From: an uncultured Actinomycetota bacterium
GTDB lineage: Bacteria; Actinomycetota; Actinomycetes; JBEVHX01
DNA length: 64,000 nucleotides
NCBI GenBank assembly: GCA_963836025.1
Contig: CAWIIE010000014.1
Span: 8,739 to 72,738, forward strand
Reading direction: 5' to 3'
Shown: positions 15,023 through 64,000 of the stretch, piece by piece
Position numbering within the stretch: position 1 is the first letter of the stretch
Layout of the letters: the number at the start of each line of letters is the position of its first letter
Notes under the pieces: generated by a model
Told to the model about the DNA's origin: nothing
Database searches by the model: none
Seen by the model: only the letters and a program-made list of their open reading frames with translations
Translations under genes and position numbers: made by a program

Positions 15023-15150
15023 GCCCCCCCAATAGCTTTCGCCGTGAGGCTATCGAGTCATCACCAGAATCGAGCAGCCTCGACCAGTTGGTGAGTCGGT
15101 TCGAGCCAGAGCCGGTCCCGCCCCATCTCGGACGGGCGGGACCGGCCGTG

Positions 15151-15825: not shown

Positions 15826-16147
15826 GATCGTCACCTCCTTGTCGGTCTGCCGTATGCTTGAACCCGCGTGCGCGACGCCGCGAACGGACGCGACCGACCG
15901 GACGCACGCCAGCGGGGGCTCGAAGCCCGCAAGGCCGGATGCGACCTGCCCGCCACGGCGCAGCCGCGGTCGTGCTGGTCGGGTCGCGCCCGCCCGATGG
16001 GAGTTGAACCCGGCGCTTTGCAGGCGCTGCCCTCGGTTCGATGCAGTACGGGTTCGACGAACGGTCGACCCCGCTGACAAGGACCGACCTGGAGGGTAGT
16101 GATGGGAGCGGCCTCGGGCGAATGATTTCCTGCGGCTGTCCGAAGGC

Positions 16148-29692: not shown

Positions 29693-29748
29693 GCCAGTCC
29701 TCCGAGGAGCCCACCGACGCATCAGAGGCACGGGTTCGTCGTCGGTTC

Positions 29749-30237
29749 TCAGGTCAACGTCTCCAGCGCAGCACGGATCAGGTCGGGGATGGGCTGCGGT
29801 CGCCGCGTGGTGGCGTCGACGTACACGTGAACGAACCGACCAACGGCGTGTGGTGCCGGGTCGATGGTGCCGCCCGGACTCTCGCGGAACACTGCCAGCC
29901 GGTAGATCACGCTGGTGCGCCCGCGGTGCTCCAGCCCAACACCTACCTGCACGACGTCCGGAAACGACAGCTCACGCAGGTATCGACAGGATGTCTCGAC
30001 GACGACACCGAACGCGGGCAGCACGCGGATGTCGGTGCCAGTCGCGTCGATGAGCCAGCCGTTGACGGCGTCGTCGAACCAGTTGTAGTAGATGACGTTG
30101 TTGACGTGGCCGTACACGTCATTGTCCGCCCACCGGGTATGCACCCGGCGCAGGACTCGGAAGTCGCCCGGCGTGGGCAACGGCTCGATCGCGGACGATC
30201 GCTCGCCCCTTTCGCCTTCGCCACGGACGTCCGTCAC
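29749..30237 (-). CDS. hotdog-fold acyl-CoA thioesterase (4HBT / YbgC-like)
   Basis: WADNDVYGHVNNVIYYNWFDD. 162 aa. A near-identical paralog lies at 58654-59145. Confidence 0.8.
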   Translation of the reverse strand: MTDVRGEGERGERSSAIEPLPTPGDFRVLRRVHTRWADNDVYGHVNNVIYYNWFDDAVNGWLIDATGTDIRVLPAFGVVVETSCRYLRELSFPDVVQVGVGLEHRGRTSVIYRLAVFRESPGGTIDPAPHAVGRFVHVYVDATTRRPQPIPDLIRAALETLT

Positions 30238-30241
30238 GAGG

Positions 30242-30400
30242 TCACCGTACGGGGGCCGACCACTCGTCCAGCACCTCGGCGAGTGTCGTGGCGCCGGGCT
30301 GCGGGGGTGGGGTCCGCACGGATCCGGGCGTCCTCGTGAAGCGAGGAGCCGGGGCAGGCTGGGTCATGCCGAAGGTGTCGACGAAGGTCTTTCGCGCCAT
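30242..30400 (-). pseudogene. 3' remnant of a CaiB/BaiF family-III CoA-transferase / alpha-methylacyl-CoA racemase gene
   Basis: ARKTFVDTFGMTQPAPAPRFTRTPGSV resembles the racemase C-terminal motif (HPHN.AR..F......QPAPAPRFSRTP). The remnant is only about 50 aa, directly upstream of the thioesterase. Confidence 0.4.
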
Positions 30401-30958
30401 CAGACGCGCTGAAGCAGGCACTCCCGCGGCTGCTCCCCGGAAGTACCGCGGTGGTGATCGGTGTCGGCGGCCTCGGCCACATGGCCGTTCAGCTACTGCG
30501 CGCTGTGACGGCGCGCGCATCATCGCGCTCGACGTCAGCGAGGAGAAACTCGCTCTCGCGGCAGGACTCGGCGCGCACCACACCCTGGTGTCCGATGACC
30601 AGGCGGCGACCAAGGTCCGCGAGCTGACCGACGGGGACGGAGCGCACGTGGTCTTCGACCTCGTCGGCGCTCAGGCGACCTTGGCAGCGGCCACGAGAAT
30701 GGTGTGCGTGGACGGGCAGATCATCGTCGTGGGTATGGGCGGCGGCTATGTCCCGGTTGGCTTCGGTCGTCTGCCGTTCTCAGTCTCGGTGTCTGTGCCG
30801 TTCGCGGGGCCCGTAGCGACCTCATCGAAGTGATCGACCTCGTCAGTGCTGGCGCGGTCAGCACTCATGTGCAGGCTTTCACGCTCGATGAGGCACCACA
30901 TGCATACGACCTGCTCAGCAAGGGCGGCATCGAGGGTCGCGCTGTCATCGTTCCGTGA
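30390..30958 (+). pseudogene. zinc-type alcohol dehydrogenase (MDR) pseudogene, 5'-truncated and frameshifted
   Basis: GSTAVVIGVGGLGHMAVQLLRAV, then a frameshift near 30500, then ARIIALDVSEEKLALAAGLGA...GQIIVVGMGGG, then a second shift near 30790, then LIEVIDLVSAGAV...GGIEGRAVIVP. The N-terminal catalytic domain is absent. Confidence 0.6.
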
Positions 30959-49609: not shown

Positions 49610-52441
49610 CTAGTGACTCGACTGAGACATGCGCGCACCCAGCTCAGCGCGGGAGTGGATTCCGAGTTTGCGGTAGATGCGGGCCATGTTCGCCTCGACG
49701 GTCTTGTGGCTGATGAACAGCGCAGCTGCGATCTCCTTGTTGGAGGCCCCCTGGGCGGCGAGTTGTGCGACCCGGTGCTCGCCCTCAGTGAGTTGGCCGG
49801 CGTTGACGCGGTGCAGGCCGACGCGTTGAAGTTCTCGACGGGAGCGGGCGGCCCAGCGGGCCGACCCGAGGCCGGTGAAAGTGGCCTCGGCCTGACGGAG
49901 CGATGTTTGCGCCTGACCGTGTCGTCGGGCGCGGCGCTGGATCATCCCCTCAACGAGCAACGTTCGTCCCCTCTCGAAGGGCATGTCGACCGCGGATTGC
50001 GCGTCAACGGCTTGGCCGATCGCGGTACGGGCCGCTTCGATGTCGCCGCGCGAGGCTAACAGCAGCGCTCGGCACCGGGCGCCCGTGAGGACGGCCCACG
50101 GTCGGTCAAGCTCATGGCCACGTTGCTCCAGTGTCTCGACCAAGGGGGCTGCCCGTTCCTGGCCGCCGAGGGCGATGAGCGCCTCGAGCGCGTCGGGCAG
50201 CAGGAAGGCGATGATCGGCTCCCATCGGTCGAGGTTCTCCAGGATCCGGACAAGCGGCTCACTTGCTCGCCAGGCTGCGTCAAAGTTCTCCTCCGAAAGC
50301 TCGAGCAACGTGGTCGAAGCGGCGATCCAGATGCCGGGCTGCAGGTAGCCGGAGGAGGCAAGTAGCTCCTGCGTCTGGGCGCAATAGTCGCGAGTACAGT
50401 CCACGTCCCCTCGATGCGCCGCGACGTACGCCTGCTGGCCGAGCGCCCACGCGTTCATCGAACGACTGCCGGTGAGCGTGGCGAGGTAGGTCGCTTCGAC
50501 CGCGAGGTCCGCCGCGAGTGCCAAGTTGCCAGCACGCAGCTCGAGCCAGGACAGCCAAGTGAGCGCAAAGGCAAGGTCGCTTTCATCGCCGCGCATGCGC
50601 GCCCGCGTGCAGAGGTCCGCAAGGGCGTCTCGCGCTTCGGCGTGGCGGCCGCAATACAAGAGCAGGAGTGCCCGCATCGTGGCGGGCCGCCGCTCGATCG
50701 GCACCAGACGGGTGCGGTCTTCGAGGGACACGGCGCGCTCGACCATGCCCCAGTCGTGCCCATCACCGCTCAAGAACCCGAGCATGGCCTGGTAGCCCAG
50801 CGCCTCAGCGATCAAAGCCGGGTCGCCAAAGCCCTCAGCGATCGTGAGCGCCCGATCCGCATATTTGGCTGCTCCCGGGAAGTCCCAGAGCTGCTCCCAC
50901 ATCTGTGCGTCGACGTACGACAGCGAGAGCAGGATTTCGGCGATGGTCCGCTCGGTGCCCGCGATACCAACGGCTTCGTGCAGCAGCCGGCTGGCTTGGA
51001 CGAAGTTGTCGTCGTTGTAGCTGACCTCGGCCAGCACGCGCAGCGCTTCGGCCCGCATGTGCCGGTCAACGGGCGTCTTCAACACCTGTTCCAGGAGTGC
51101 CCTAGCTCTCGCCCGGTCACCGGCGTGCACGTGGTGCTCGGCCGCGGAGATCGTCCGCTGGCCAGCGTCGAGCGGCTGGTCGGTCGGCGTCAGCCGAGCT
51201 GCCTGCTCCATGAGGTCTGCCGCGGTCTCCCAGGCGCCTCGCGTGCGCGCCGCGACTGCGCCGTCGATGAGCGCCCGCGCAACCGCCTCACCCGGAGATG
51301 CCGCCAAAGCCAGGTGTCTGGCCCGCTCCTCCGGCTCCGTGGCGAGATCTGCGAGCCGGCTGTGGAGCGCGATCCGCTGCCGCCTGGGCATCGCCTGATA
51401 GACGGCCGCCGCATACAGCGGGTGGCGAAACGTGATCACCTTGGTTGAGTCGATCGTGACGATTCCGGCTTCGACGGCGGGGTCTAGGGACTCTTCGTCG
51501 ACCATCTCGAGTGAGGGCGATGACAGCGCCGCGCAGACGGCCAACGCCTCTTGGGTGATCACCGGCAGCCGACGGATGTGATCGTCGATCAGTGCCTTCA
51601 GGGTGTCGGGGATCGGGATGTCATCGTTGACGCCGAGGGTCCCGCCGTTCGCCTCGATCTCCCGGGCGATCTCGATGGCGTGCAGCGGGTTGCCGCCCGA
51701 TGACTTGTGGATGCGGAGCATCATCGGACGCGGGATAGGCCCGGTGAGCGTGGGGCTGATCACGTCGTGCAGAGCGGCCAGGCTCAGCGGCCCGAGGGTC
51801 AACCGGGTGTGTTGCTCGGGCCGCGCAAGCCGAGCGACGTCCAGTTGCATTGGATGCCCGCTACGGTGGGCCAGCATCCATGCGATGTGCACGTTTTCCA
51901 GCCGGCGCAGCGCAAACCCGATCATCGTTGCCGATGCTCGATCCAGCCATTGCTCATCGTCGATGGCGATCAGCAGGGGCTGTTTGTCGCTCATGGCCGC
52001 CAGGACTGACTTCAGTGATGCGGCGATGCGACGCGGCTCGAGCGGCTCACCGTCCGCCCCGGTTCGGAGCATCGCGACATCGAGCGCGCGCCGTTGAATC
52101 GGGGGCAGGGCCTCCAGCTCAACGTTCGAAATCGCCTCGAGCAGATCGGCAACAGCGGCAAGCGCCATGGTCATCTCGTACTCGGCTGCACGGCAGGACA
52201 ACACGCCGAAGCCCATGGCCTGAGCGCGTCGAATGGCCTCCCACCAGACCGTTGTCTTGCCGATCCCCGCGTCGCCGTCAAGCACGAGTACACGTGAACC
52301 GTGAGACGCCGCCGCGAGCACATCGTCGACAATCGCGAGCTCGCGGTCGCGACCGATACACGCAGCCATGTCACCTGCCTGAGCGATCGCCGTCGCCGAC
52401 GATTCCTGGCGCCGGTGGACGCCAACCAAAAGGTAGGACAA
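49610..52441 (-). CDS. LAL-type regulator (N-terminal AAA/P-loop ATPase, TPR-like middle, C-terminal LuxR HTH)
   Basis: LVLDGDAGIGKTTV Walker A. C-terminal LTEGEHRVAQLAAQGASNKEIAAALFISHKTVEANMARIYRKLGI (LuxR HTH). 943 aa. Confidence 0.85.
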   Translation of the reverse strand: MSYLLVGVHRRQESSATAIAQAGDMAACIGRDRELAIVDDVLAAASHGSRVLVLDGDAGIGKTTVWWEAIRRAQAMGFGVLSCRAAEYEMTMALAAVADLLEAISNVELEALPPIQRRALDVAMLRTGADGEPLEPRRIAASLKSVLAAMSDKQPLLIAIDDEQWLDRASATMIGFALRRLENVHIAWMLAHRSGHPMQLDVARLARPEQHTRLTLGPLSLAALHDVISPTLTGPIPRPMMLRIHKSSGGNPLHAIEIAREIEANGGTLGVNDDIPIPDTLKALIDDHIRRLPVITQEALAVCAALSSPSLEMVDEESLDPAVEAGIVTIDSTKVITFRHPLYAAAVYQAMPRRQRIALHSRLADLATEPEERARHLALAASPGEAVARALIDGAVAARTRGAWETAADLMEQAARLTPTDQPLDAGQRTISAAEHHVHAGDRARARALLEQVLKTPVDRHMRAEALRVLAEVSYNDDNFVQASRLLHEAVGIAGTERTIAEILLSLSYVDAQMWEQLWDFPGAAKYADRALTIAEGFGDPALIAEALGYQAMLGFLSGDGHDWGMVERAVSLEDRTRLVPIERRPATMRALLLLYCGRHAEARDALADLCTRARMRGDESDLAFALTWLSWLELRAGNLALAADLAVEATYLATLTGSRSMNAWALGQQAYVAAHRGDVDCTRDYCAQTQELLASSGYLQPGIWIAASTTLLELSEENFDAAWRASEPLVRILENLDRWEPIIAFLLPDALEALIALGGQERAAPLVETLEQRGHELDRPWAVLTGARCRALLLASRGDIEAARTAIGQAVDAQSAVDMPFERGRTLLVEGMIQRRARRHGQAQTSLRQAEATFTGLGSARWAARSRRELQRVGLHRVNAGQLTEGEHRVAQLAAQGASNKEIAAALFISHKTVEANMARIYRKLGIHSRAELGARMSQSSH

Positions 52442-52482
52442 GACCCGATGCCGTGGGCGCCTTTGGGCCCCAACCTGAACAA

Positions 52483-52767
52483 GTGGACCGGATCTACGTC
52501 GTCGAGTGCTATTGGCCAGGCGTCACGCGATCAGCCATGCTCGCTTCCGCCGAAAGGCTTGATGTTGCTGCCCACGAGCTAAGCACTTTGGACCGCCCGC
52601 TCCGGTTGCTTGGTTCCGGGCTGGTCCCAGCCGACGAGACGGCGTTCTACCTCATACGAGCCGCATCGGACTTGGATGTCGCCGAGGCCAGCAGCCGCGC
52701 AGGGCTGCGGTTCGAGCGCGTCGTGGAATGCCAGATCGACTCCAACGTCGGACGAGAACGCACGTGA
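52483..52767 (+). CDS. small DUF4242-like protein
   Basis: GTG start. VDRIYVVECYWPG...LLGSGLVPADETAFYLIRAASDLDVAEASSRAGLRFERV matches the DUF4242 pattern. The upstream part of the tool's ORF is low-complexity, antisense to the LAL gene. Confidence 0.45.
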   Translation: MDRIYVVECYWPGVTRSAMLASAERLDVAAHELSTLDRPLRLLGSGLVPADETAFYLIRAASDLDVAEASSRAGLRFERVVECQIDSNVGRERT

Positions 52768-52803
52768 TCGTGATGGTCGCCGGCTACGCCGGATCTGGTC
52801 GCG

Positions 52804-53523
52804 CTATCGGGGCGGCTTCACACAGAACTCGTTGCCATCGGGATCGGCCATCACCACCCAGTCGACCTGGCCCTGGCCGATGTCGATTCGAGTCGCCCCG
52901 AGGGAGACGAGACGGTCGACCTCGGTTTGCTGATCACCCGCAGGTGGAGCAACGTCGAAGTGCAGCCGGTTCTTTCCCGTCTTCGGCGCCACTGGCGGAC
53001 CGCCCCACGCGAACTTGGGACCGCCGCGCGGCGAGCGGATCGCGGTCTCTTCGTCCTGGTCCCAGACCAACGGCCAGCCCAGCGCTTCGCTCCAGAAGTA
53101 CCCGACCTCCTGCGAACCGTCGCAGTTCACCGCTCCGATGAACCCGCAGTCGGCAAGGAAGGCGTTGCCCGGCTCGATGACGCAGAACTCATTGCCCTCG
53201 GGGTCGGCGAGCACCGTATGACCCTCATCCGGGCGTTGGCCGACATCGATGTGCCGGGCGCCGAGTCCGAGCGACCGCTCCACCGTCTGCTTCTGGTCCT
53301 CGAAAGACGCGCTCGTCAGATCGAAGTGCATCCGGTTCTGGCCGACCTTCTGCTCCTGAGTGGAAAGAAAGCGAATCTGGAACCCGGTGTCGTCGTTCGG
53401 CAGCAGCGCGATGCCGTCCTGCGGGTCGTCGGCCATCGGCCAGCCCAGCACGCCGGCCCAGAAGCGCGCGAGACCGTTCGGATCGATCGCATCGAAGCAG
53501 AGCGCATAGAGCTGAGACGTCAT
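52804..53523 (-). CDS. tandem-VOC (two glyoxalase-like domains) protein
   Basis: The likely start is MTSQLYALCFDAIDPNGLARFWAGVLGW. The second domain is similar (AVNCDGSQEVGYFWSEALGW). Each ends DPEGNEFCV or DPDGNEFCV. Confidence 0.7.
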   Translation of the reverse strand: MTSQLYALCFDAIDPNGLARFWAGVLGWPMADDPQDGIALLPNDDTGFQIRFLSTQEQKVGQNRMHFDLTSASFEDQKQTVERSLGLGARHIDVGQRPDEGHTVLADPEGNEFCVIEPGNAFLADCGFIGAVNCDGSQEVGYFWSEALGWPLVWDQDEETAIRSPRGGPKFAWGGPPVAPKTGKNRLHFDVAPPAGDQQTEVDRLVSLGATRIDIGQGQVDWVVMADPDGNEFCVKPPR

Positions 53524-53704
53524 CCCGCATCTCCGATCTGCTGAAGCAAACGTCCCTCCCGCCGCTGAGCAATCGACGCTAGGACGCTCGGGGACTGCCG
53601 CACAACGCAATTGCGTCAACAGGGCGACGCCCGCCACTGCGCGTCGGCGCCTCCGGCCGCCGATGGCGTGATCGGACGTCTCGTACGAACCCGGTGACCA
53701 CCAG

Positions 53705-54445
53705 CTAGGGCTGGTACAAGGCGCGCACCACGGCATCAACACCAGTGCCGGCCGCAGTTCGTGGTCGCTCCTCAGCGACGACGATCTGCCACTCGCGGGG
53801 GTCGAGCGCCTCGACGGCGTCATCGACACTCACTTGCACCTGTCCCATGGCGGGCGTTGGTTCGCCGGTCGCGGGGTCCACGGGAAGGTGCCCAACCAGG
53901 AACAGGGTTCCGCCGGGCGCGACGCCGGTGCCCAGCCGAGTCACCATCTCGCGTACCGACCCGGCGACATGGACATAGAGACAGCAGACCAGGTCGAACC
54001 GCCTGGGCGATGGGGTCCAGTTGCCGAGGTCGCCCTGGGCCCAGGTAATCCGATCAGCCACGTCCGCCCCGACGGCTTGGGCTGTCGACCGAGCGTGCTC
54101 GAGCGCGGCCACGGAGAAATCGACTGCGGTGACCTGCCATCCGGATGCGGCGAGCCAAATCGCCTCGGCGCCCTGCCCGCAGCCGGCGTCGAGGGCGTGA
54201 CCTGCCGCCATGTCCTCGACCGCGGCGAGAAGATGCGTGTTCGGTGGGCGGCTCGTCACCTCGTCCGGATGCTCACGCAGGACCTGCGCCCAGCGCCGTT
54301 CCCAGAAGTCCCGATCGAACGACGCGTTGGCCACGAAAACTCCTTGATCGCACCGACCGTACGTGGCTCGACCTGCGGAAGGGGCACCGTTCTGCGTCAT
54401 CCCCTCCCCGTCCTTGACAAGATCACGAACGAGGCGGACCGTCAT
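53705..54445 (-). CDS. class I SAM-dependent methyltransferase
   Basis: ALDAGCGQGAEAIWLAASGWQVTAVDFS (motif I) and DLVCCLYVH. The start may be ATG 54400. Confidence 0.75.
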   Translation of the reverse strand: MTVRLVRDLVKDGEGMTQNGAPSAGRATYGRCDQGVFVANASFDRDFWERRWAQVLREHPDEVTSRPPNTHLLAAVEDMAAGHALDAGCGQGAEAIWLAASGWQVTAVDFSVAALEHARSTAQAVGADVADRITWAQGDLGNWTPSPRRFDLVCCLYVHVAGSVREMVTRLGTGVAPGGTLFLVGHLPVDPATGEPTPAMGQVQVSVDDAVEALDPREWQIVVAEERPRTAAGTGVDAVVRALYQP

Positions 54446-54501
54446 GCGCTTAGGCCCACGTTGATCTGGGTAGCCAGGTACCCACCACGTTTGGAGGATT
54501 C

Positions 54502-54574
54502 ATGAGCACGCGCACGATCGCTATCGCCGCCCTCATCATTGCCCTGATCCTGGTCATCGTCCTGTTCATCGTCT
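54502..54574 (+). CDS. 24-aa hydrophobic mini-protein (MSTRTIAIAALIIALILVIVLFIV)
   Basis: GGAGGATTC precedes ATG 54502 and TGA is at 54572. It is a single TM helix. It falls below the tool's length cut-off. Confidence 0.35.
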
Positions 54575-54675
54575 GAACGGCACTCCGGGCGCGGCCTTCG
54601 TCAACTGTCCGCAGCGTAGCCACCTTGGCTACGCTCGACGGAGATTTGGGCGGGGGGCGTGGGAGCGAGGGCGCC

Positions 54676-55431
54676 ATGGCTGAACGCTTCACCGATCGAG
54701 TGGTCGTCGTCGACGCCGAGAACCGTGAGGTCCTCCAGTTCGATGCGCGGTTTGCCGTACTCGACCTTGGTCAGGCAGGGAACGAGGGTGACTTGCGTCT
54801 GCGTGGTGACGACGGTGAGTTCACGTTTCACCTCGACGGTGGCAGGCAGCTCCTGCTCGTCCGGGATCCCGCCGGGCGTGACGTCCTTCAGTTCACCGGG
54901 CCGAACGCTTTGCTCAGGGTGGGCGCGCGTGGCAACGAGGGCGACATCTACGTCGTGGACAGCAACGGTGACGTATCGATCCACCTGGACGGTGGATCGG
55001 GCGACATCGTGCTTAAGAATGCCGACTGCGCCGAGGAGTTCGACTGCACTGACCGCGAGGCGCCGCCGCCGGGGTCGGTCGTTGTGCTGCGCGACGACGG
55101 TGGCGTGGGCGTCAGTGAACGTGCGTACGACACCCGAGTCGCGGGCGTCGTGTCCGGGGCGGGTGGCTACCGGCCCGCGATCGTGCTCGGCGCGGGCAGG
55201 GCACGCTCGTCGAGCCGTGTGCGGGTCGCCCTCACCGGTCGAGTGGCATGTCGAGTCGACGCCGCGCAGCGGCCCGTGCGCGTGGGCGATCTGTTGACAA
55301 CGTCGTCCCGCCGAGGGCATGCGATGGTTGCCGAGTCAGGGGCTCGTGCCGTCGGCTCGGTCGTCGGGAAGGCAATGGGGTCGCTGCCAGACGGCACCGG
55401 ACTCGTCCCGATGCTTGTCATGCTGCGCTGA
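54676..55431 (+). CDS. hypothetical protein with internal about-40-aa beta-repeats (GNEGD...HLDGG) and a conserved-looking C-terminal domain
   Basis: REVLQFDARFAVLDLGQAGNEGDLRLRGDDGEFTFHLDGG and RDVLQFTGPNALLRVGARGNEGDIYVVDSNGDVSIHLDGG. The C-terminus is RVAGVVSGAGGYRPAIVLG...VRVGDLL. No family recognised. Confidence 0.5.
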   Translation: MAERFTDRVVVVDAENREVLQFDARFAVLDLGQAGNEGDLRLRGDDGEFTFHLDGGRQLLLVRDPAGRDVLQFTGPNALLRVGARGNEGDIYVVDSNGDVSIHLDGGSGDIVLKNADCAEEFDCTDREAPPPGSVVVLRDDGGVGVSERAYDTRVAGVVSGAGGYRPAIVLGAGRARSSSRVRVALTGRVACRVDAAQRPVRVGDLLTTSSRRGHAMVAESGARAVGSVVGKAMGSLPDGTGLVPMLVMLR

Positions 55432-55439
55432 GGACGTCG

Positions 55440-56660
55440 TTGACCACGTCGCTGAAGGCGCTCGCGCAGTGCCTGGGGTTGTCCGACGAGGTGTCGGTCA
55501 GGACGGAAATGCTGCCGCGGGCCGAGTCGGGCCGGCCGGGACGCCCTGGCATACCCCTGTCGGGAGAGGTCTCGCTGCTCAACGTGATGCGCTTCCTCGA
55601 GTGGCAGTGGTGCGACAGTGCCAACTACCTGAAGATGGCAGTCCCTGCGGAATTGCGATCACCGTCGCGCGAGGAGGCCCAGATCGCGGTCGACGGTGTA
55701 GCAGAGAAGGTCACGCTGTTCATGGGGAAGTCCGACTGGGAGCTCGACTGGCATATCTTTCCGCGCCTCGACGAGCCGGTCATGACTCGGCTGCAGGCGG
55801 TCGGTCGACTCAGAGGGACCCTGTTCTGCGAATGGATGGGCGTCGACCGCTGGGAAGACGAGATCTTCGGTCGGCAATGGTGGTCAAGCGACATGGACCG
55901 CATCCTGTCCCTGCGTTGGCCGTTGCCCGACGCCCGATCAGGTGCGGAAACCGCATCCGAGCATTGGAGCCTGGTCGAGGACGACAACCAGGGCGGCAGT
56001 GCGGAGATCGTGGCCGACATCAACAACGCGGCCAAACGCGGAAACGCGAAGATCGTGGGTGGTCGTGTCTACCTGCAGGGTGCATTCGTCATGGACGACC
56101 CCACCGACACCGACGACCATGCTCATCTCGAAATCCACCCGTTGGACTCGGTCGCGTATGCGCTGGACAGTGACGGCGCCGTGCTTGCCCAACGCGGGAC
56201 GGACACAACTTGGCCGCGGAGCACGGTGGTCTGGCGGGTCGGCGTCGTGACCAACGCGGGGTTCCACCGGATCAACGGATGCAGTTTCCTGGAACAGGAT
56301 CGAACCACTGTTTGGTACCTGGACCTGCCAACGCTCGCGGGCTTGCCCACGATCGCCGTCCGCGTCGACGACTCGGAGCCGGGTTTCTGGCACTCCCCCA
56401 CGAACAGCCGGTTCGGCAGCCGCGGTGTGCGCAACATCGACGTGCAGCCGCGGCCGGACGGGAGCGACCGTGACATCAGCGCCTTCCCGGTCGATCCGTC
56501 AGACGGTCGGAGAAAGCTGCGCGTCGAAGTCACCATGGCGCGGCCGGACGACTGGGGCGGGCTGTTCCTGCGCGACTATCGCATTACGGCCCGCAGCGTG
56601 GTCGCCTCCGCCGACGAACTGGGTGCGCCCCCGGACGCTGGTTCACGGCCTGTCAAATAG
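55440..56660 (+). CDS. hypothetical protein (about 400 aa), co-directional with and 8 nt after the repeat protein
   Basis: Probable TTG 55440 or ATG about 55510. High GC3 throughout, Trp-rich (WQW, WELDW, WWSSDMD). No family recognised. Confidence 0.45.
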   Translation: MTTSLKALAQCLGLSDEVSVRTEMLPRAESGRPGRPGIPLSGEVSLLNVMRFLEWQWCDSANYLKMAVPAELRSPSREEAQIAVDGVAEKVTLFMGKSDWELDWHIFPRLDEPVMTRLQAVGRLRGTLFCEWMGVDRWEDEIFGRQWWSSDMDRILSLRWPLPDARSGAETASEHWSLVEDDNQGGSAEIVADINNAAKRGNAKIVGGRVYLQGAFVMDDPTDTDDHAHLEIHPLDSVAYALDSDGAVLAQRGTDTTWPRSTVVWRVGVVTNAGFHRINGCSFLEQDRTTVWYLDLPTLAGLPTIAVRVDDSEPGFWHSPTNSRFGSRGVRNIDVQPRPDGSDRDISAFPVDPSDGRRKLRVEVTMARPDDWGGLFLRDYRITARSVVASADELGAPPDAGSRPVK

Positions 56661-56842
56661 GGCACACCTCGCCCACCGTGGCCGCGACGGGTTGCCAGCA
56701 GTTCCCGCCGACCGGGAACGCGCGGATCGCGCAGTGGCTGTCAGAGCGCCCCTGACCGCACGGCGACTTCGTGAAGCCGGCCACCAGGATCGCGGCAGAT
56801 GAGTGCGTTCGCCGTCAAGTGCCTCCTTCGCCCATAGCTGGG

Positions 56843-57553
56843 CTATGTCCGGGCCGGCTCTCTTGCCTGACGGGGGGGTGCCCCATCGGCCGACGGTGGA
56901 GATGCCCGTAGGTTCCAGGTCGGCAGCATCCGCGCGAGTTGACGGGGGCCGGTGATGCGGATCTCTCCGGATCGAAGGGCGTCGGTCCACGCGAGTTTCG
57001 TCATATGCCAAAGGGTCAGGGTCTTCGCGCTGGTCTCCACGACGAGGTCCTCGTCGAAGCCGGGCGGTTTCGTGCACACCTCGGCATCCGTGGGATTGAC
57101 GACTAACCAGATGCTGCGCCTGCCCGGTGGCTGGTCCGCGAGCTCGAACCGCACGACGACTCGTCGGTCGGGGAGATTGGCGTGGGCCAGGTACACCGTG
57201 GACCACGTCCAGAGCAGGAATCGCGGGTTGGTGTGCTCGTCGCGTAGCTCGACCCATCGCTCGCCCCAGGCACCGAGCGCGGAGAGCACGGGCCAAAGCT
57301 CCTGGCCGGCCTCGGTCAGCTCGTAGCGCGCCCGGCCAGGCTTGCCCGTGGGCCTGGCTTGGATGATCCCGGCCTGGACGAGGTGGCGCAGCCGTTGGGT
57401 CAGCACGGTGTGCGAGAGCCCGGGTGCGCCGGCTAGGATTTCGCCGTAAGTGCTGCAGCCAGCGTGAATGTTGCGCACGATGAGGGGTGTCCAGCGTTCG
57501 GCGAAGATCTCCGCGGCCCGAGCTATCGGGCAGTACTGACCGTACGTCCTCAT
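56843..57553 (-). CDS. HxlR-type transcriptional regulator with C-terminal domain (intact paralog)
   Basis: MRTYGQYCPIARAAEIFAERWTPLIVRNI...LTQRLRHLVQAGII (HxlR HTH). 236 aa in a single frame. Confidence 0.75.
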   Translation of the reverse strand: MRTYGQYCPIARAAEIFAERWTPLIVRNIHAGCSTYGEILAGAPGLSHTVLTQRLRHLVQAGIIQARPTGKPGRARYELTEAGQELWPVLSALGAWGERWVELRDEHTNPRFLLWTWSTVYLAHANLPDRRVVVRFELADQPPGRRSIWLVVNPTDAEVCTKPPGFDEDLVVETSAKTLTLWHMTKLAWTDALRSGEIRITGPRQLARMLPTWNLRASPPSADGAPPRQAREPART

Positions 57554-57639
57554 CCCCTCAGTGTCCGGCCGATCGCGAGGGACCGTCTAGAGCGGATTTA
57601 GTCCTAGCCGTCCGTCCACGTGCGGTTCACGCTGAACGC

Positions 57640-58464
57640 ATGGAACAGACGCAACGAGCGGGTAGCGGGTCGCGGTGGGGTCCCTTGTTCGGCGCAGGCG
57701 CCGACGTCTGGGCGGACACCTGGGAGGGCTCCCGAGGCTGGGGAACATCCGTCTACGAGCACGTGCTGCAAGAGGCGGACATTCGAGCCGGGACCTCAGT
57801 CCTCGACTGCGGATGCGGCGCCGGACGCTTTGTACGGCTCGCGGCCGACGAGGGCGCAAGGGTCGCAGGCATCGACGCGGCCAGCGCGTTGGTGGAGATC
57901 GCGAGGAAACGCACTCCCGATGCTGACCTCCGCGTCGGCGACTTCGAATCGCTGCCGTGGCCGGATCGCACCTTCGACGTCGTCGCCGGGTTCAGCACCT
58001 TCCAGTTTGCCGACGACCACGCGAGCGCACTTCACGAGGCGTCGCGGGTGTCTCGCGGATCAGTCTGGGTAGCCATCCCGACTCGGTTGGCCGACTCCGG
58101 GATCCCGCAGGCGTTCGCGTCGTTGATCGATCTGTTCCCGGCAGGGGTGCCAGCCAGCCTCAAGAACAGCGGGATGTACGCGCTATCGGCACCGGAGCGG
58201 CTCGAGGGGGTGCTCGAGGCGGCCGGACTCCGAGCAAGGACTGACGACATCGTTGAGTCGACAGTCGTCTTCCCCAACGTCGAGACCGCAGTGCGCGCGT
58301 TCCTCAGCGCCGGGGCGACCGCCCTTGCCGTTCAGCGATCCGGCCGGAGAGCCGTCGAGCAAGCGCTCACTGAAGCACTCAGGCATCTCACCGACGACCT
58401 CGGTACGGTCACGCTGCCTGGATGGTTCCGGGTTGTCGAGGCCCGCGAAGCCTCCGGTCCATAG
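57640..58464 (+). CDS. class I SAM-dependent methyltransferase
   Basis: VLDCGCGAGRFVRLAADEGARVAGIDAS (motif I) and FDVVAGFSTFQF. Divergent from the HxlR gene. Confidence 0.8.
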   Translation: MEQTQRAGSGSRWGPLFGAGADVWADTWEGSRGWGTSVYEHVLQEADIRAGTSVLDCGCGAGRFVRLAADEGARVAGIDAASALVEIARKRTPDADLRVGDFESLPWPDRTFDVVAGFSTFQFADDHASALHEASRVSRGSVWVAIPTRLADSGIPQAFASLIDLFPAGVPASLKNSGMYALSAPERLEGVLEAAGLRARTDDIVESTVVFPNVETAVRAFLSAGATALAVQRSGRRAVEQALTEALRHLTDDLGTVTLPGWFRVVEAREASGP

Positions 58465-58653
58465 AGTCCCTTGACAGGCGCTGCTCGGGCACCTGGGTTG
58501 CTTCTGTCCAACCGAGGTACGCGAGTGCCCGATGAGCGTTTACCTGAACTCGGCATGGCAGGGCACCCACCAGAGCACAGCCGTGTTCACGGCCTGCCTG
58601 ATCTGCTCTGGGTTCCGCACTCTCACCGCATGGTCTTGGTTGCTCGTCGGTTG

Positions 58654-59145
58654 TCAGGTCAACGTCACCAGCGCAGCTCGGATCACATCGGGGATTGGCT
58701 GCGGCCGGCGCGTGGTGGCGTCGACGTACACGTGCACGAACCGACCAACGGCGTGCGGCGCCGGATCGATGGTGCCGTCCGGACTCTCGCGGAACACTGC
58801 CAGCTGGTAGATCACGCTGGTGCGCCCGCGGTGCTCCAGCCCAACACCTACCTGCACGACGTCTGGAAACGACAGCTCACGCAGGTATCGACATGAGGTC
58901 TCGACGACGACGCCGAATGCCGGCAGCGCACGGATGTCGGTCCCAGTCGCGTCGATGAGCCAGCCGTTGACCGAGTCGTCGAACCAGTTGTAGTAGACGA
59001 CGTTGTTGACGTGGCCGTAGACGTCGTTGTCCGCCCACCGGGTGTGCAGCCGGCGAAGGACGCGGAAGGCGCCCGGCGTGGGCAGCGGGTCAACTGTGGA
59101 CGGCCGCTCGCGCCGCTCTTCGCCTTCAGCTCCGACGACCTGCAC
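58654..59145 (-). CDS. hotdog-fold acyl-CoA thioesterase, paralog of 29749-30237
   Basis: WADNDVYGHVNNVVYYNWFDD. About 90% nt identity to copy 1. The start is uncertain (a GTG near 59145). The frame stays open upstream into the racemase remnant. Confidence 0.6.
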   Translation of the reverse strand: MQVVGAEGEERRERPSTVDPLPTPGAFRVLRRLHTRWADNDVYGHVNNVVYYNWFDDSVNGWLIDATGTDIRALPAFGVVVETSCRYLRELSFPDVVQVGVGLEHRGRTSVIYQLAVFRESPDGTIDPAPHAVGRFVHVYVDATTRRPQPIPDVIRAALVTLT

Positions 59146-59330
59146 GAGGTCACGGTACGGGGGTTGACCATTGGTCCCGCACCGCACCGAGGGTCGTGCT
59201 GCCGGCTGCGCGGTGCGGTCCGGACGGATCGGGGCGTTCTCGAGAACCGGGGAGCTGGGGCCGGCTGCGTCATAGCGATGGTATCCATGAAGGTGTCCCG
59301 CGCTTTCAGGTGCGGATGCGTCGGAGCATC
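58658..59330. repeat. segmental duplication, copy 2
   Basis: See copy 1. Copy 2 retains more of the racemase C-terminus. Confidence 0.7.
59146..59330 (-). pseudogene. 3' remnant of CaiB/BaiF family-III CoA-transferase / alpha-methylacyl-CoA racemase (second copy)
   Basis: GTLYAEFIKRLGLDDAPTHPHLKARDTFMDTIAMTQPAPAPRFSRTP has the HPHN/L.AR..F...QPAPAPRFSRTP C-terminal signature. A metallophosphoesterase-like fragment (DVGAPYYGNHET) lies further upstream. Confidence 0.4.
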
Positions 59331-59593
59331 GTCGAGCCCGAGCCGCTTGATGAACTCGGCATACAAAGTCCCGTTCCAGAGCCCCGACCGCCATGTACCG
59401 GCTGTCCGCCGTCTCGTGGTTGCCGTAGTACGGGGCGCCGACATCAATCAGGCTCGTCCCCCGAGCGCTGCAGAGTTGCACCTGGCGGCAGAACATTCAG
59501 ACTGTCTGAAGGCAGCGCAGCAGGCAGCGCCCGCTCCGTCGACCAGGTCGGGACGACTGGCGTGCCAGCGGTGAAAACGTGATCGGTTGAAGG

Positions 59594-60733
59594 GTGGCTC
59601 GCGTGCGCATCCAAGCGGCAGTCTTGAACAGGTCCGGCGCAAGCAGGCCATATTCGACATCCGGGCCGCTCGAGGTCACAGAGCTGGAGCTCGACCCGCC
59701 CGGCCCGGGCGAAGTTCTCGTCCGCGTCGAGGCCGCCGGGCTGTGTCACTCCGACCTGTCGGTCGTGGACGGCAACCGACCCCGGCCGCTGCCGATGGCG
59801 CTTGGGCACGAGGCCGCGGGGATCGTGCTCGAGATCGGTGCAGGCGTCTACGACGTCGAGCCCGGCGATCACGTCGTCTGCGTCTACGTGCCGAGCTGCG
59901 GAGTCTGCCGACACTGCTCATCGGGTCGGCCCGCGCTCTGCGCCTCCGCGGCCCGCGCCAACGGCGCTGGCGACCTGATCCGCGGCGGCAGCCGACTGCG
60001 AGATCCGTCCGACGGTCGGGAGATTCGTCACCATCTCGGGGTCTCTGGTTTCGCGAGCCACGCCGTGGTCGATCGCAACACCCTCGTCGTCATCGAACCT
60101 GATGTGCCGTTCGAGGTCGCTGCACTCTTCGGCTGCGCCATGCTCACCGGGTTTGGCGCCGTGACGCATACCGCCGACGTTCGCCCCGGCAGTGCGGTCG
60201 CGGTCTTTGGTCTGGGGGGTGTCGGGCTTGCCACCGTCATGGCGGCGGCGTCCGCCGGCGCACAGCCGGTCGTGGCAGTCGACCCGATCCCCGCCAAGCG
60301 GCAGCTCGCGCTCGAGCTGGGCGCAACTCACGCATGTTCACCTGACGATGCCGACGATGTCGTTGCCCAGGTCGCACCAGGTGGCGTCGACTGGGCCTTC
60401 GAGGTCGTCGGTTCGGCCGCCGTGCTCGAGGCCGCATATGCGCTCACTGGACGCGGCGGCGGCACCGTCGCCATCGGCCTCCCCCACCCCGATGCAAAGC
60501 TCGTCTTGCCAGCACTGAGCATCGTGGCAGACAACCGCTCGATCCTCGGCTCATACATGGGCTCGGCCCAGCCCCAGCTCGACATTCCCGTGATGATCCG
60601 GCTGTGGCGCTCGGGTTGCCTGCCCGTCGATCGCCTGACGAGCGACGAGCTGCCGCTTGGCCACATCAACCGAGCCCTCGATGCCCTGGCCGACGGCACC
60701 GCGGTTCGTCAGGTTCTCCGTCCGGCGCACTAA
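59594..60733 (+). CDS. zinc-dependent alcohol dehydrogenase (class III / formaldehyde-dehydrogenase-like MDR)
   Basis: GLCHSDLSVVDG and GHEAAGIVLEIG (zinc ligands), CGVCRHCSSG (structural zinc), VAVFGLGGVGLATVMAA (Rossmann). Confidence 0.85.
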   Translation: MARVRIQAAVLNRSGASRPYSTSGPLEVTELELDPPGPGEVLVRVEAAGLCHSDLSVVDGNRPRPLPMALGHEAAGIVLEIGAGVYDVEPGDHVVCVYVPSCGVCRHCSSGRPALCASAARANGAGDLIRGGSRLRDPSDGREIRHHLGVSGFASHAVVDRNTLVVIEPDVPFEVAALFGCAMLTGFGAVTHTADVRPGSAVAVFGLGGVGLATVMAAASAGAQPVVAVDPIPAKRQLALELGATHACSPDDADDVVAQVAPGGVDWAFEVVGSAAVLEAAYALTGRGGGTVAIGLPHPDAKLVLPALSIVADNRSILGSYMGSAQPQLDIPVMIRLWRSGCLPVDRLTSDELPLGHINRALDALADGTAVRQVLRPAH

Positions 60734-60764
60734 CCAAAGCACGGCGATCAATCCGAGCCGGGAC

Positions 60765-60883
60765 CTAGCTGATGTCCATGACGTCGATCTGGCTGGCGTA
60801 CTTCTCGGCGATCGGCCGACGCTTGAGCTTCATGGTCGGAGTCAGCTCGTCGCTGTCGGGGCCCACCGCAGGCGGGGTTGACT
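60765..60883 (-). pseudogene. 3'-terminal stub (about 38 codons) of a long-chain fatty-acid--CoA ligase (ACSL/FadD15-type) gene
   Basis: The minus strand reads ...GPDSDELTPTMKLKRRPIAEKYASQIDVMDIS*, the conserved ACSL C-terminal motif. An in-frame TAG lies immediately upstream. The rest of the gene is absent and replaced by the STAND gene on the other strand. Confidence 0.4.
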
Positions 60884-60935
60884 AGAGAAGCGCCTGACAG
60901 CGACCACAGGGACCAGGGACACTGCACGCGAGGAA

Positions 60936-63617
60936 GTGTCGTACATCGTGGGGGGGCCCCGGGCAATGGAAGCACTCGCAGACGACCCACGACTGGTCGT
61001 CCCGATTCGGACGCCGGACCAGCGGCTGCGCGTCTTCGTGTCCTCGACGCTCGGCGAGTTGGCCGACGAACGGGCCGCTGTTCGACGAGCGGTCGAGGCG
61101 CTTCGGCTGACGCCCGTCATGTTCGAGATGGGGGCCCGACCACACCCACCACGCGCGCTGTACCGCGCATACCTCCAGCAGAGCCAGGTCTTCGTCGGCC
61201 TGTACTGGCAACGGTACGGATGGGTCGCGCCCGACGAGGCGGTGTCCGGACTCGAGGACGAATACCTGCTATCAGACGGGATGCCGCGTCTGGTCTACGT
61301 CAAGCGACCGGCCTCCGACCGTGAACCGCGACTCGGCGAGCTGCTCACGCGCATCCAGACCGACGACCAGCTCTCCTACCGTGCGTTCGCCGACACGGAG
61401 GAGCTTGAGCAGCTCGTGAAGGACGACCTCGTGGTCCTCCTCAGCGAGCGGTTCGCGGCAACCGGCAACGCACCAGGTGGCGGGTCGTGGCACCCAACGC
61501 GTGTGCCCCTTCCGTCGACCCCGACGTTCGGGCGCGACGCCGACATGGCCGCGGTCATGGCGGCTCTTGAGTCGGGGACCCGGCTGCTCACACTGGTGGG
61601 ACCAGGCGGAGTCGGCAAGAGCCGTCTCGCGCTTGAGGTGTGCCGGCGGGTGCAGTCCCGCTATGCCGACGGGGTCGTCTTCGTGCCGCTGGAGTCGGTG
61701 ACTGAGCCCGATTACGTGATGCGCGTGTTCGCCCGCAGCGTCGGAGCCGCCCTCGAGGGGAATCAGCCGGCGCTGGACGCCGCGATGAGACGCCTCAACG
61801 GACGCGCCTGTCTGCTCCTGGTCGACAACTTCGAGCAGGTCGTCGAGGCCGCACCCGAGCTTGGCAGGCTGATCGACGCTTGCCCGGGCGTCCAGGCGCT
61901 CGTCACAAGCCGTCGACCGCTACGGTTGCGCGGCGAGCGGGAACACCCCGTCGCGCCGTTGGACGTCCCGCCGGAAATCAGCACACTCGTGCCCGGGCAG
62001 CGCTTCTCACCCGAGCAAGCCGAGGCGTTCCCGTCGGTCGAGTTGTTCGTCGGCCGAGCGCAGGCCGTCCGACCCGACTTCCACCTCGACGGCCGCAACG
62101 GGAGTGACGTCGCCACGCTGGTCCGCTGCCTGGACGGCTTGCCGCTCGCTCTGGAGATCGCAGCCGCACGCACCCGGGTCTTGTCGCCGGGTGCCCTCGT
62201 CCAACGCCTGCTGAAGGACCAGGGGGTTCTCGGGACAGCAGCCGTCGACGTGCCTCTGAGGCAGCGGACGTTGCGCACCACGTTGGAGTGGAGCCACAGC
62301 CTTCTCACGCCGAGCCAACAGCGGTTGTTCGCAAGAATGAGCGTCTTCCCCGACGGCGCGACATTGGACGCGATCGACGCCGTGTGTGGCGACGCGGAGA
62401 CCGACGTGGTCGAAGGCGTGTCGGCCCTGCTCGAGAACAACCTCGTCCGGCAGGCGTCCGAGGCGGTGGACGGGCAGCCAAGAATCGCGATGCTGACAAC
62501 CGTCCACGGGTTCGCGCAGGAGCAGCTCGACGCATCTGACGAGGCCGATGTCCTCCGCGCGAGGATGGTCGACTGGTTCGTCGGGCAGGCCCAACTCGCC
62601 GACACCACCCTCGACCGGGCGGCACATCTGGCGTGGCCAGAACTCTTGCCCGATCTGCGAAACCTCCGCGCCGTCGCCTGGCTGCTGGTCGCCGATGGCG
62701 ACTGCGCCCGCCTTACCGGCTACATCTGGCACCTGTACGCCTTCTTGTGGCAATCCGGACTGACCAGCGGCGCCCTTGAATGGATCGAGCGCCTGAACGA
62801 TCTCGAATGCAGCCACGCCGATGACCAGCACCGCGCCCGGGCAGCGGGCCTGATCGCGATGGTCCGCCACCAGACCGGTGACTTCGACGGTGCGATGGAG
62901 GCGCTCAGCCTCGTCAACGTTGAGGCGGTTGAGGCCAGCGACCCGGCCGCGGCCGCGGTTCTCGAACTGTGCCGGGCCGTGACTTTGCCGTACTGGGACC
63001 GGATCGACGAGGCGCTCGTCGCGGCCGAGAATTCGGTGCGGGCAGCGCGGGCGTCCGGCTTCGCTTTCGCGGAGGGGTATGCGCTGGCGATCCAGGGTCT
63101 GGTCTCGCTCCTAGGCGGCGACATCGACCGTGGACTCGAGTTGAGCCGTGCTGCGCTTGATCTCGGCTCCGAGCTCGAGCTCGTGACCCTGATCGCGCAG
63201 CAGCACGGGATCTTGGCGCTGCACGCGGCAGGTCAGGGTGACGTCGCACAGGCCCGGTCCGGCTTGCGTGTCGCTCGCGACGTCCTCGGTGGCGACCGCG
63301 GCATCAACGAGCTGACGGCCCTGCTCGGCCACGCAGCCGTACTCGCAATGGTCGAAGGGCGGCCCGACGATGCGGTCCGCGCCCTGTCGTGCTCGGACGT
63401 GACTCTGCGACGACTGGGCCTGGGTAAGTGGCCCCTGTTCGAGCGTATGCGCGCAGGGATGGACGAGGCTGTGGCGGCGCAGGTCGGGGACCGCTACACC
63501 GCGCTCGTCGCGGAAGGGGCCGCGGCCGAGCCGTGGGCGTTGTTTGACCAGGTCGTGCAGGTCCCGATGAGCTCGGTCCAGGCTGCCGACCTCCGTCAGC
63601 CGGTTTCGACGTACTGA
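60936..63617 (+). CDS. STAND-class NTPase: N-terminal DUF4062-like domain + NB-ARC/AAA P-loop + C-terminal TPR-like array
   Basis: 893 aa. N-terminal RLRVFVSSTLGELADERAAVRRAVEAL...PVMFEMG...VFVGLYWQRYGW (DUF4062 pattern). Walker A LVGPGGVGKSRLA. Walker B LLLVDNFEQV. hhGR.Q motif VTSRRPL. Helical repeats to the C-terminus. Alternative start ATG 60966. Confidence 0.85.
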   Translation: MSYIVGGPRAMEALADDPRLVVPIRTPDQRLRVFVSSTLGELADERAAVRRAVEALRLTPVMFEMGARPHPPRALYRAYLQQSQVFVGLYWQRYGWVAPDEAVSGLEDEYLLSDGMPRLVYVKRPASDREPRLGELLTRIQTDDQLSYRAFADTEELEQLVKDDLVVLLSERFAATGNAPGGGSWHPTRVPLPSTPTFGRDADMAAVMAALESGTRLLTLVGPGGVGKSRLALEVCRRVQSRYADGVVFVPLESVTEPDYVMRVFARSVGAALEGNQPALDAAMRRLNGRACLLLVDNFEQVVEAAPELGRLIDACPGVQALVTSRRPLRLRGEREHPVAPLDVPPEISTLVPGQRFSPEQAEAFPSVELFVGRAQAVRPDFHLDGRNGSDVATLVRCLDGLPLALEIAAARTRVLSPGALVQRLLKDQGVLGTAAVDVPLRQRTLRTTLEWSHSLLTPSQQRLFARMSVFPDGATLDAIDAVCGDAETDVVEGVSALLENNLVRQASEAVDGQPRIAMLTTVHGFAQEQLDASDEADVLRARMVDWFVGQAQLADTTLDRAAHLAWPELLPDLRNLRAVAWLLVADGDCARLTGYIWHLYAFLWQSGLTSGALEWIERLNDLECSHADDQHRARAAGLIAMVRHQTGDFDGAMEALSLVNVEAVEASDPAAAAVLELCRAVTLPYWDRIDEALVAAENSVRAARASGFAFAEGYALAIQGLVSLLGGDIDRGLELSRAALDLGSELELVTLIAQQHGILALHAAGQGDVAQARSGLRVARDVLGGDRGINELTALLGHAAVLAMVEGRPDDAVRALSCSDVTLRRLGLGKWPLFERMRAGMDEAVAAQVGDRYTALVAEGAAAEPWALFDQVVQVPMSSVQAADLRQPVSTY

Positions 63618-63870
63618 CCCTGCGGTCCTAGGCGCCGGTAGGAGCAGTCGGCGGTTCGACCCGTCGTGCGGGTTTCACGCCGTATGGATCGTGCTGCGCT
63701 CGGCCCATCGACCACGCGCTGCAAGGCCGGCAGCTGTGTTTGCTGTTCGTGTCTCGGGTCGCCCATCGACTGCATGCGCCCCTGTCATGCGCGCCGCCCG
63801 CTCATCGGAAGAGTAGTGATCCGTCGAGCCGGCTCTGGCGCCCGTCGGGTCTGCGGACCATCGTTGCGGC

Positions 63871-64000
63871 ATGGCCACGGTTGATCTCGCGACGGCGGTC
63901 GAACGGACGCCCCTGGTCGGTCATGTCGGTAAGTCGGGCGCCGGGCTCGAGCGGGTGGTGCTCGCCGACGGTCGGCGGCTGATCGTGAAGCGGCTCTCAG
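63871..64000 (+). CDS. phosphotransferase (APH / protein-kinase-like fold), 5' end only
   Basis: MATVDLATAVERTPLVGHVGKSGAGLERVVLADGRRLIVKRLS resembles the APH N-terminal G.SGA.V.R motif. It runs off the window. Confidence 0.45.
   Translation, partial: MATVDLATAVERTPLVGHVGKSGAGLERVVLADGRRLIVKRLS

Follow-up and report, generated by a model that had tools for sequence, protein, structure and literature searches.

The 64,000-nt stretch of DNA analysed here (the window), which comes from an uncultured actinobacterium, carries between an intact alcohol dehydrogenase (ADH) gene and a DUF4062-STAND gene a short minus-strand sequence that homology searches identify as the genuine 3′ remnant of a long-chain acyl-CoA synthetase (ACSL) gene (60768-60860). 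The homology ends at a rearrangement junction, and the stub was, on balance, probably produced by a deletion-type event, which is favoured over replacement of the gene by incoming DNA. The first-pass annotation, which had read the stub as the breakpoint at which STAND-bearing DNA replaced most of an ACSL gene, is partly supported. A junction does lie directly beside the STAND gene, at 60860/60861, and recurs in the sister contig L083 (ENA ERZ25039469 contig_9264; 254,692 bp), but the insertion of STAND-bearing DNA in place of the ACSL gene is not demonstrated.

Remnant of an acyl-CoA synthetase gene

The minus strand at 60768-60860 codes for PDSDELTPTMKLKRRPIAEKYASQIDVMDIS, followed by a stop, which corresponds to the C-terminal tail of a FAA1/FadD15-type ACSL. 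Translation of the whole minus strand of 60765-60935 gives FLACSVPGPCGRCQALL, a stop, STPPAVGPDSDELTPTMKLKRRPIAEKYASQIDVMDIS and a second stop; the peptide, the in-frame TAG upstream of it (60882-60884) and the terminal TAG (60765-60767) had been read correctly at first pass. The similarity to ACSL C-termini claimed there is also significant. When a query of 42 residues, with the stop entered as X, was compared with 5.8 billion proteins, 62 matches were obtained at E ≤10, the best with an E-value of 1.2e-6 (86-92% identity over 26-28 residues) and the top ones together with E-values of 1.2e-6 to 1e-5 and identities of 79-92%. An enzyme name was supplied for about half of the 62 matches, and all of the named ones are long-chain or long-subunit acyl-CoA synthetases. 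In the reverse direction, a near-full-length ACSL (from locus L082) matched 60777-60860 of the window in tblastn with 82% identity (E 8e-10).

Fourteen of the 15 ACSL tails compared end with W-x-P-(D/G)-(S/G)-(D/E)-ELTPTMKLKR(R/K)PIAEKY-x-x-x-I-(D/E)-x-(L/M)-Y. The TPTxKxKR motif of this tail, the lysine of which we take to be the A10 catalytic lysine of adenylate-forming enzymes, is present in the remnant. Residues 1-26 of the remnant are essentially the family consensus, which is consistent with little decay of the relic since its truncation. The departure is within the last five residues, where the end IDVMDIS deviates from the family ID-x-(L/M)-Y and the tyrosine of 14 of the 15 tails is replaced by aspartate. 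The counterpart of the stub in homologues is the end of Pfam AMP-binding_C_3 (up to position 122 of 124), downstream of the AMP-binding domain. The stub alone gave no match in Pfam and no solved structure in the PDB, because the tail of the family is too short for such models.

In comparison with FAA1/FadD15-type ACSLs (COG1022; PF00501 plus AMP-binding_C_3, PF23562), the 31 residues of the remnant match the extreme C-terminus with 82-92% identity and have the ELTPTxKxKRxxxxxxY tail in common with the family, whereas some 95% of the protein is missing, the entire AMP-binding domain with it, an upstream stop closes the reading frame, and no credible start is present. A tblastn search of the window and L083 with an ACSL that has PF00501 at residues 16-419 found no adenylation domain (~400 residues) upstream of the tail, and the corresponding part of the minus strand is taken up by the STAND gene on the opposite strand. 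No ORF for a full enzyme with a start codon is present; the in-frame TAG lies seven codons above the homology, and the longest ORF at the stub has 33 codons and starts from GTG. The relic is thus inert as coding sequence and is not a family member able to function. Truncated gene remnants are a well-known kind of feature that will not surprise a specialist, and the stub itself offers nothing new on acyl-CoA synthetases or on genome rearrangement as such. It is of practical use to annotators, who should leave the 33-codon ORF out of the gene list and mark the locus as rearranged.

Breakpoint and surrounding spacer

Both in the comparison of protein tails and when the DNA is aligned with the 3′ ends of four ACSL genes, the homology starts at CCCGAC (Pro-Asp, 60860) and continues to the stop, and its abrupt limit can be placed at 60860/60861 to about ±3 nt (give or take a codon). 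The seven codons upstream of this point (STPPAVG) match no homologue at the protein or the DNA level. The relic is therefore taken to be 31 codons long (60768-60860), rather than about 38 as first annotated, and the breakpoint to lie at 60860/60861. Counted from a comparator of ~590 residues, the first ~570 codons of the gene would have been lost. The distance of 52 nt that had been given between the stub and the STAND gene is that from the in-frame stop to a possible GTG start; about 105 nt separate the breakpoint from the more probable ATG start (Table 1).

Table 1. Features at the junction and related features elsewhere in the window (window positions)
Feature	Position	Strand	Evidence
Duplicate of thioesterase (29749-30237) and last ~55 MCR-like codons (30242-~30410)	29733-30403	-	Self-blastn, ORFs
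Second ADH (ADH2), 5′-truncated, ADH_zinc_N positions 9-101 of 129 only	30495-30770	+	Pfam
4HBT-type thioesterase, directly downstream of MCR-like remnant	58654-59142	-	Pfam 4HBT_2 (3.4e-19)
MCR-like remnant: C-terminal third of alpha-methylacyl-CoA racemase/Far-like CoA-transferase III	59146-59460	-	ORFs, weak Pfam match, PDB 2g04
Intact Zn-dependent alcohol dehydrogenase (ADH)	59594-60733	+	Pfam ADH_N and ADH_zinc_N; relatives match residues 4-377
31-nt spacer between convergent stop codons of ADH and ACSL remnant	60734-60764	.	Coordinates
ACSL remnant, last 31 codons (PDSDELTPTMKLKRRPIAEKYASQIDVMDIS) and TAG 60765-60767	60765-60860	-	Homology searches, tail and DNA alignments
Seven in-frame codons (STPPAVG) without ACSL homology and in-frame stop 60882-60884	60861-60884	-	Translation, protein tails, DNA alignment
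Rest of the 105-nt stretch from breakpoint to STAND start (60861-60965; first 24 nt are the STPPAVG part)	60885-60965	+	
DUF4062 (NIR, putative TIR-like NADase)-STAND NTPase-HTH_77/TPR gene, 883 aa	60966-63617	+	Pfam DUF4062 (2.4e-18), AAA_22, AAA_16, nSTAND1, NACHT

The ADH gene and the ACSL remnant are convergent and 31 nt apart. The short spacer between them, which has one SNP relative to the sister assembly (at 60745), could represent the original 3′ flanking sequence of the lost gene or else a second junction. ADH and the STAND gene lie on the same strand and are separated by 232 nt, within which the stub forms an antisense stretch. In this ADH-STAND spacer no terminator was predicted, no promoter and no Rfam family were matched, and the RNA fold is not unusual (z = +1.27). 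Because no terminator is predicted between them, the two genes may be co-transcribed.

Other truncated genes in the window

The stub is not the only gene remnant in the window. The MCR-like remnant, which lies between the thioesterase gene and ADH, is truncated at its 5′ end and has a frameshift near 59365. It matches Pfam CoA_transf_3 weakly at positions 287-362 of 366, and residues 304-348 of Far (PDB 2g04) with an E-value of 2.8e-4. It must be truncated, since at full length the gene would extend into the intact ADH. The thioesterase gene and the adjoining MCR-like sequence occur a second time in an internal duplicate of 671 nt (29733-30403 versus 58638-59309; 86.5% identity), which extends from 16 nt past the thioesterase stop to a point inside the MCR-like gene, the copy at 29733-30403 being the older one. 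Head to head with the MCR-like tail of that copy (30242-~30410, minus strand) lies the remnant of a second ADH (ADH2; ~30495-30770, plus strand), which is 34% identical to the intact ADH and has lost its N-terminal half. This double remnant (30242-30833) looks like the outcome of a deletion across a divergent promoter region. Three genes of the window in addition to the ACSL stub are thus truncated at the 5′ end with the same geometry, in which the lost end faces a divergent neighbour, and such an arrangement is the outcome of deletions across the upstream region that divergent genes share.

Gene callers place the start of the intact ADH at ~59603, which gives a protein of 376 aa. Its closest relative anywhere, in locus L085, is 82% identical, and DNA homology between the two loci is confined to 59604-60725. 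In Mycobacteroides, Amycolatopsis, Saccharopolyspora and Streptomyces, the ADH orthologues have a thioesterase gene directly 3′ on the same strand, with overlapping stop and start codons, and these thioesterases (L001-L011, ~11095-11560 in each) are 58-67% identical to that of the window by tblastn. The thioesterase gene of the window, in contrast, lies upstream of ADH in inverted orientation, so that the pair is divergent and is split by the MCR-like remnant. Because of this difference from the orthologues in four other genera, the flanks of ADH are considered to have been reshuffled as well. A single inversion was considered as the source of the order thioesterase (minus), MCR-like remnant (minus), ADH (plus) and ACSL remnant (minus) and was dropped, because the arrangement in no relative yields this order in one step.

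The neighbouring DUF4062-STAND gene

Residues 198-328 of the STAND protein match AAA_22, AAA_16, nSTAND1, NACHT and NB-ARC; the match to TPR is weak, and HTH_77 is taken from precomputed annotations. PF13271 and PF25872 are precomputed for 7877 STAND homologues. ATG 60966 appears a more likely start codon than GTG 60936, because a 1-nt indel at 60950 in L083 breaks the frame that opens at the GTG and because the N-termini of homologues align to the ATG. The indel falls in a run of G residues (60948-60954) that differs in length by 1 nt between the window and L083, and on this length depends whether translation could begin at GTG 60936; the difference reflects either an error of long-read sequencing or a tract that truly varies.

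Two 2026 preprints have shown that DUF4062, which has been renamed NIR, acts as a TIR-like NADase effector in anti-phage proteins of the Avs2 type and in others that are NLR-like (bioRxiv 10.64898/2026.09.04.749371; Swarozyc, 10.64898/2026.05.01.722283). The order of parts in these proteins, with an N-terminal DUF4062, a central STAND NTPase and C-terminal helical or TPR repeats, is that of the neighbouring gene, which belongs to an actinobacterial family and differs from them in also having the HTH_77 module common to LuxR-type regulators. By this likeness the neighbour is probably an anti-phage (defence) gene and a putative NADase. Residues E97-D98-E99 are invariant in 25 STAND homologues and may correspond to a position near the catalytic glutamate (E97-E108) that was mutated in characterised proteins. 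No PADLOC v2.0.0 (2023) model matches the gene at E ≤1e-3; this library is older than the 2026 descriptions. The NIR-STAND gene is of more interest than the stub, yet its family has just been described by others.

The closest relatives of the STAND gene, which are 72% identical in L084 (10001-12634) and 57% identical in L168 (8001-10590), have only the gene bodies in common with the window. Across the three closest lineages the gene occurs in three unrelated contexts, one of which (L168) is a core cluster extending from gcvH to der-cmk, and no neighbour of the gene is conserved in 82 loci. Thousands of homologues are present in soil metagenomes. None was found on viral contigs, and plasmids gave no full-length match, the matches being to the NTPase-TPR part only, in LuxR or kinase genes. 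The STAND gene can be described as a solitary gene of many contexts, and the unrelated contexts together with the lack of a conserved neighbour lend circumstantial support to its mobility and acquisition.

The only integrase-type gene of the region, an rve gene at 21348-22163 of L083, lies 8.7 kb downstream of the STAND gene. The same contig carries a second STAND-like gene (14510-16964, minus strand), which is 31-35% identical over residues 97-565, apparently consists of two ORFs and has a GerE part. A 243-nt repeat with 95% identity (16765-17007 and 18573-18815 of L083) is common to two GerE genes.

Searches for an intact gene and for marks of an island

No other ACSL sequence was detected by tblastn in the 64-kb window or in the next 9.6 kb, by which L083 extends past the window end (73.6 kb in total). 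This result bears out the statement that the rest of the gene is missing; the displaced 5′ part that tblastn had been expected to find is absent from these 73.6 kb. A weak match at 8762-8956 was rejected as a displaced part, since the acetyl-CoA-synthetase-type gene that contains it is intact. Short "ACSL tail" proteins on long contigs (P0019, P0011, P0001 and P0006) were likewise rejected as recurrent stubs, as they derive from full ACSL genes broken by frameshifts. The ACSL genes at L081 4390-6195 and L082 4385-6171 and those of L086 and L087 are each divided into two or three ORFs in this way, and gene callers therefore report many short "ACSL tail" proteins that can be mistaken for stubs.

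There was no ACSL gene beside relatives of the ADH in 80 genome loci (best ADH match 75%, in Mycobacteroides and others), no ACSL gene or stub beside relatives of the STAND gene in 80 metagenome loci collected by a STAND profile scan, neither of these in L084 and L168, and no ACSL gene in L085. All of these loci lack a flank in common with the window and hence are not valid comparators for an intact ACSL gene; even among the closest relatives, L085 (ADH 82%), L084 (STAND 72%) and L168 (STAND 57%), none shares either flank of the junction. L083 carries the same junction as the window.

The STAND region has no foreign composition by GC, GC skew, tetranucleotides or GC3 (tetranucleotide r of the STAND gene 0.97 against a mean of 0.969; GC3 0.83). 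There is no tRNA near the junction, no flanking direct or att-like repeat involves it, and no integrase or transposase is found at the boundary, the rve gene being the only candidate.

Origin of the junction

The geometry of the stub would be accounted for by one deletion-type illegitimate recombination event, which would have removed the first ~570 codons of the ACSL gene together with whatever lay between this gene and the divergent DUF4062-STAND gene, and would thereby have joined the remnant to the DNA that begins 105 nt before the STAND start codon. The same erosion, with loss of the 5′ ends of divergent genes, would have given rise to the MCR-like remnant beside ADH and to the MCR-like/ADH2 double remnant at 30.2-30.8 kb. 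As regards geometry, the stub is accounted for equally well by a simple deletion between divergent neighbouring genes, and deletional erosion is favoured because three other 5′-truncated genes of the window show the same arrangement. Since the 5′ ends are eroded in the same manner at the MCR-like and the MCR-like/ADH2 remnants, the locus appears to be a decaying, reshuffled lipid-metabolism neighbourhood (thioesterase, racemase, ADH and synthetase) rather than a clean insertion site.

Bacterial genomes have a deletional bias, with which truncated remnants are consistent. As in deletional gene remnants (truncated pseudogenes) generally, the homology of the ACSL stub is partial, its boundary is abrupt, the 5′ end and promoter have been lost, and other remnants lie close by. 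The usual proof for such remnants is an intact orthologue at the same position, whereas the present lineage is known from two 99%-identical assemblies only. Several observations count against a deletion. Among the relatives, none was found with an intact ACSL gene or with the locus as it was before the deletion, which would reveal the direction of the event (loss alone, or gain together with loss). The STAND family is solitary and occurs in unrelated contexts, once in a core-gene cluster, which agrees with recurrent acquisition; DUF4062-STAND proteins are anti-phage effectors, a class often gained horizontally; and an rve-type gene is found downstream. In addition, the right flank of ADH may not be ancestral, given the thioesterase at this position in four other genera; the stub could then have a junction on either side, for which a single simple deletion does not account.

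Some of these observations would be better accommodated if the DUF4062-STAND segment, perhaps with the downstream APH, STAND-like/LuxR, OsmC, monooxygenase and rve genes, had arrived by horizontal transfer and had taken the place of ~95% (the 5′ portion) of a resident ACSL gene through illegitimate recombination, with the stub as the left scar. This reading is considered less likely than a deletion. It is favoured by the position of the STAND gene directly at the breakpoint, by relatives (72% and 57%) that have no flanking gene in common with the window locus or with each other, by the 82 loci without a conserved neighbour, by the protein architecture of NIR/DUF4062 Avs-like anti-phage proteins, and by the rve and second STAND-like genes downstream. 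As in the insertion scars of genomic or defence islands, a probable defence gene (NIR/DUF4062-STAND) adjoins a truncated housekeeping-type gene and the cargo gene occurs in differing contexts among relatives; unlike in such scars, a boundary integrase or tRNA, flanking repeats, a compositional shift and an identifiable second boundary are absent. Neither composition nor codon usage gives a signal of replacement, the boundary has no tRNA, direct repeat or integrase, and there is no right-hand piece of the ACSL gene within 12.7 kb of the breakpoint. The absence of STAND homologues from viral contigs, the restriction of plasmid matches to the NTPase-TPR part of LuxR or kinase genes, and the lack of an adjoining ACSL gene or stub in the 80 other STAND loci, L084 and L168 also argue against replacement, as does the same truncation geometry at junctions of the window that have no STAND gene.

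A broader conjecture, which we consider unlikely, is that solitary NIR (DUF4062)-STAND genes of soil Actinomycetota spread by illegitimate replacement without the machinery of mobile elements, that the stub is a fresh left-hand scar of this process and that the truncated genes nearby mark a recombination-prone hotspot. If this were true, defence and accessory cassettes would have been swapped repeatedly into a lipid-metabolism cluster at the hotspot. The base-precise breakpoint at 60860/60861 will be of use when more closely related genomes of this uncultured actinobacterium become available, and would then reveal by what route a solitary NADase-STAND defence gene became the neighbour of metabolic genes.

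It is still less probable that the stub is a moved fragment, and not the residue of an ACSL gene once located here, so that it has a junction on either side (60734-60764 and 60860/60861); the fragment would have come either as the 3′ flank of an ADH cassette or as filler captured during end-joining repair. The upstream, inverted thioesterase of the window, as against the one that follows ADH at once on the same strand in the four other genera, fits this reading, as do the restriction of homology with the closest ADH relative to the ORF, the truncated genes on both sides of ADH, and the 671-nt partial-gene duplicate, which indicates that pieces of genes do get copied in the window. The downstream neighbour of ADH varies, however: it is a hydrolase gene in L085, and in L016 and L018 the thioesterase lies upstream. 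There is thus no firm ground for assuming an ADH-thioesterase operon in this lineage. A convergent spacer of 31 nt is moreover normal for a native gene pair, and no second copy of the ACSL tail is present in the 73.6 kb.

The junction in a second assembly

The sister contig L083, found through the 100% cluster representative P0063, was assembled independently from a different ENA sample and is the sole other assembly of the lineage; exact-sequence look-ups with the STAND and ADH proteins of the window returned no record. L083 is 99.1% identical to the window over 50963-64000, with 117 differing positions and 15 single-base indels in 13 kb, and no difference falls across the stub and the breakpoint. 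Because the junction is identical in the two contigs despite 117 differences nearby, a chimeric join at 60860/60861 is very unlikely. That the stub is an artefact, whether a chance similarity or a mis-join, is highly improbable: the source is a long-read-style metagenome assembly, frameshifted ACSL genes occur on contigs of ENA assemblies with neighbouring accession numbers and the two assemblies differ by the 15 indels, but the E-value is 1e-6 against 5.8e9 sequences with ACSL tails as the only enzyme-named matches, the junction recurs base for base in an independent contig from another sample that is 0.9% different elsewhere, and the loss of ~1.7 kb of a gene is beyond what frameshift errors can do.

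The differences between the two assemblies are unevenly distributed. The density of SNPs is about 10 times higher in 50963-54463 (up to 24 per 500 nt) than in 54463-64000, and overlapping tetranucleotide windows deviate mildly at roughly 49-57 kb. These observations hint at a recombined or hypervariable segment near a LuxR-type AAA_16-TPR-GerE gene (49610-52441) and glyoxalase and methyltransferase genes.
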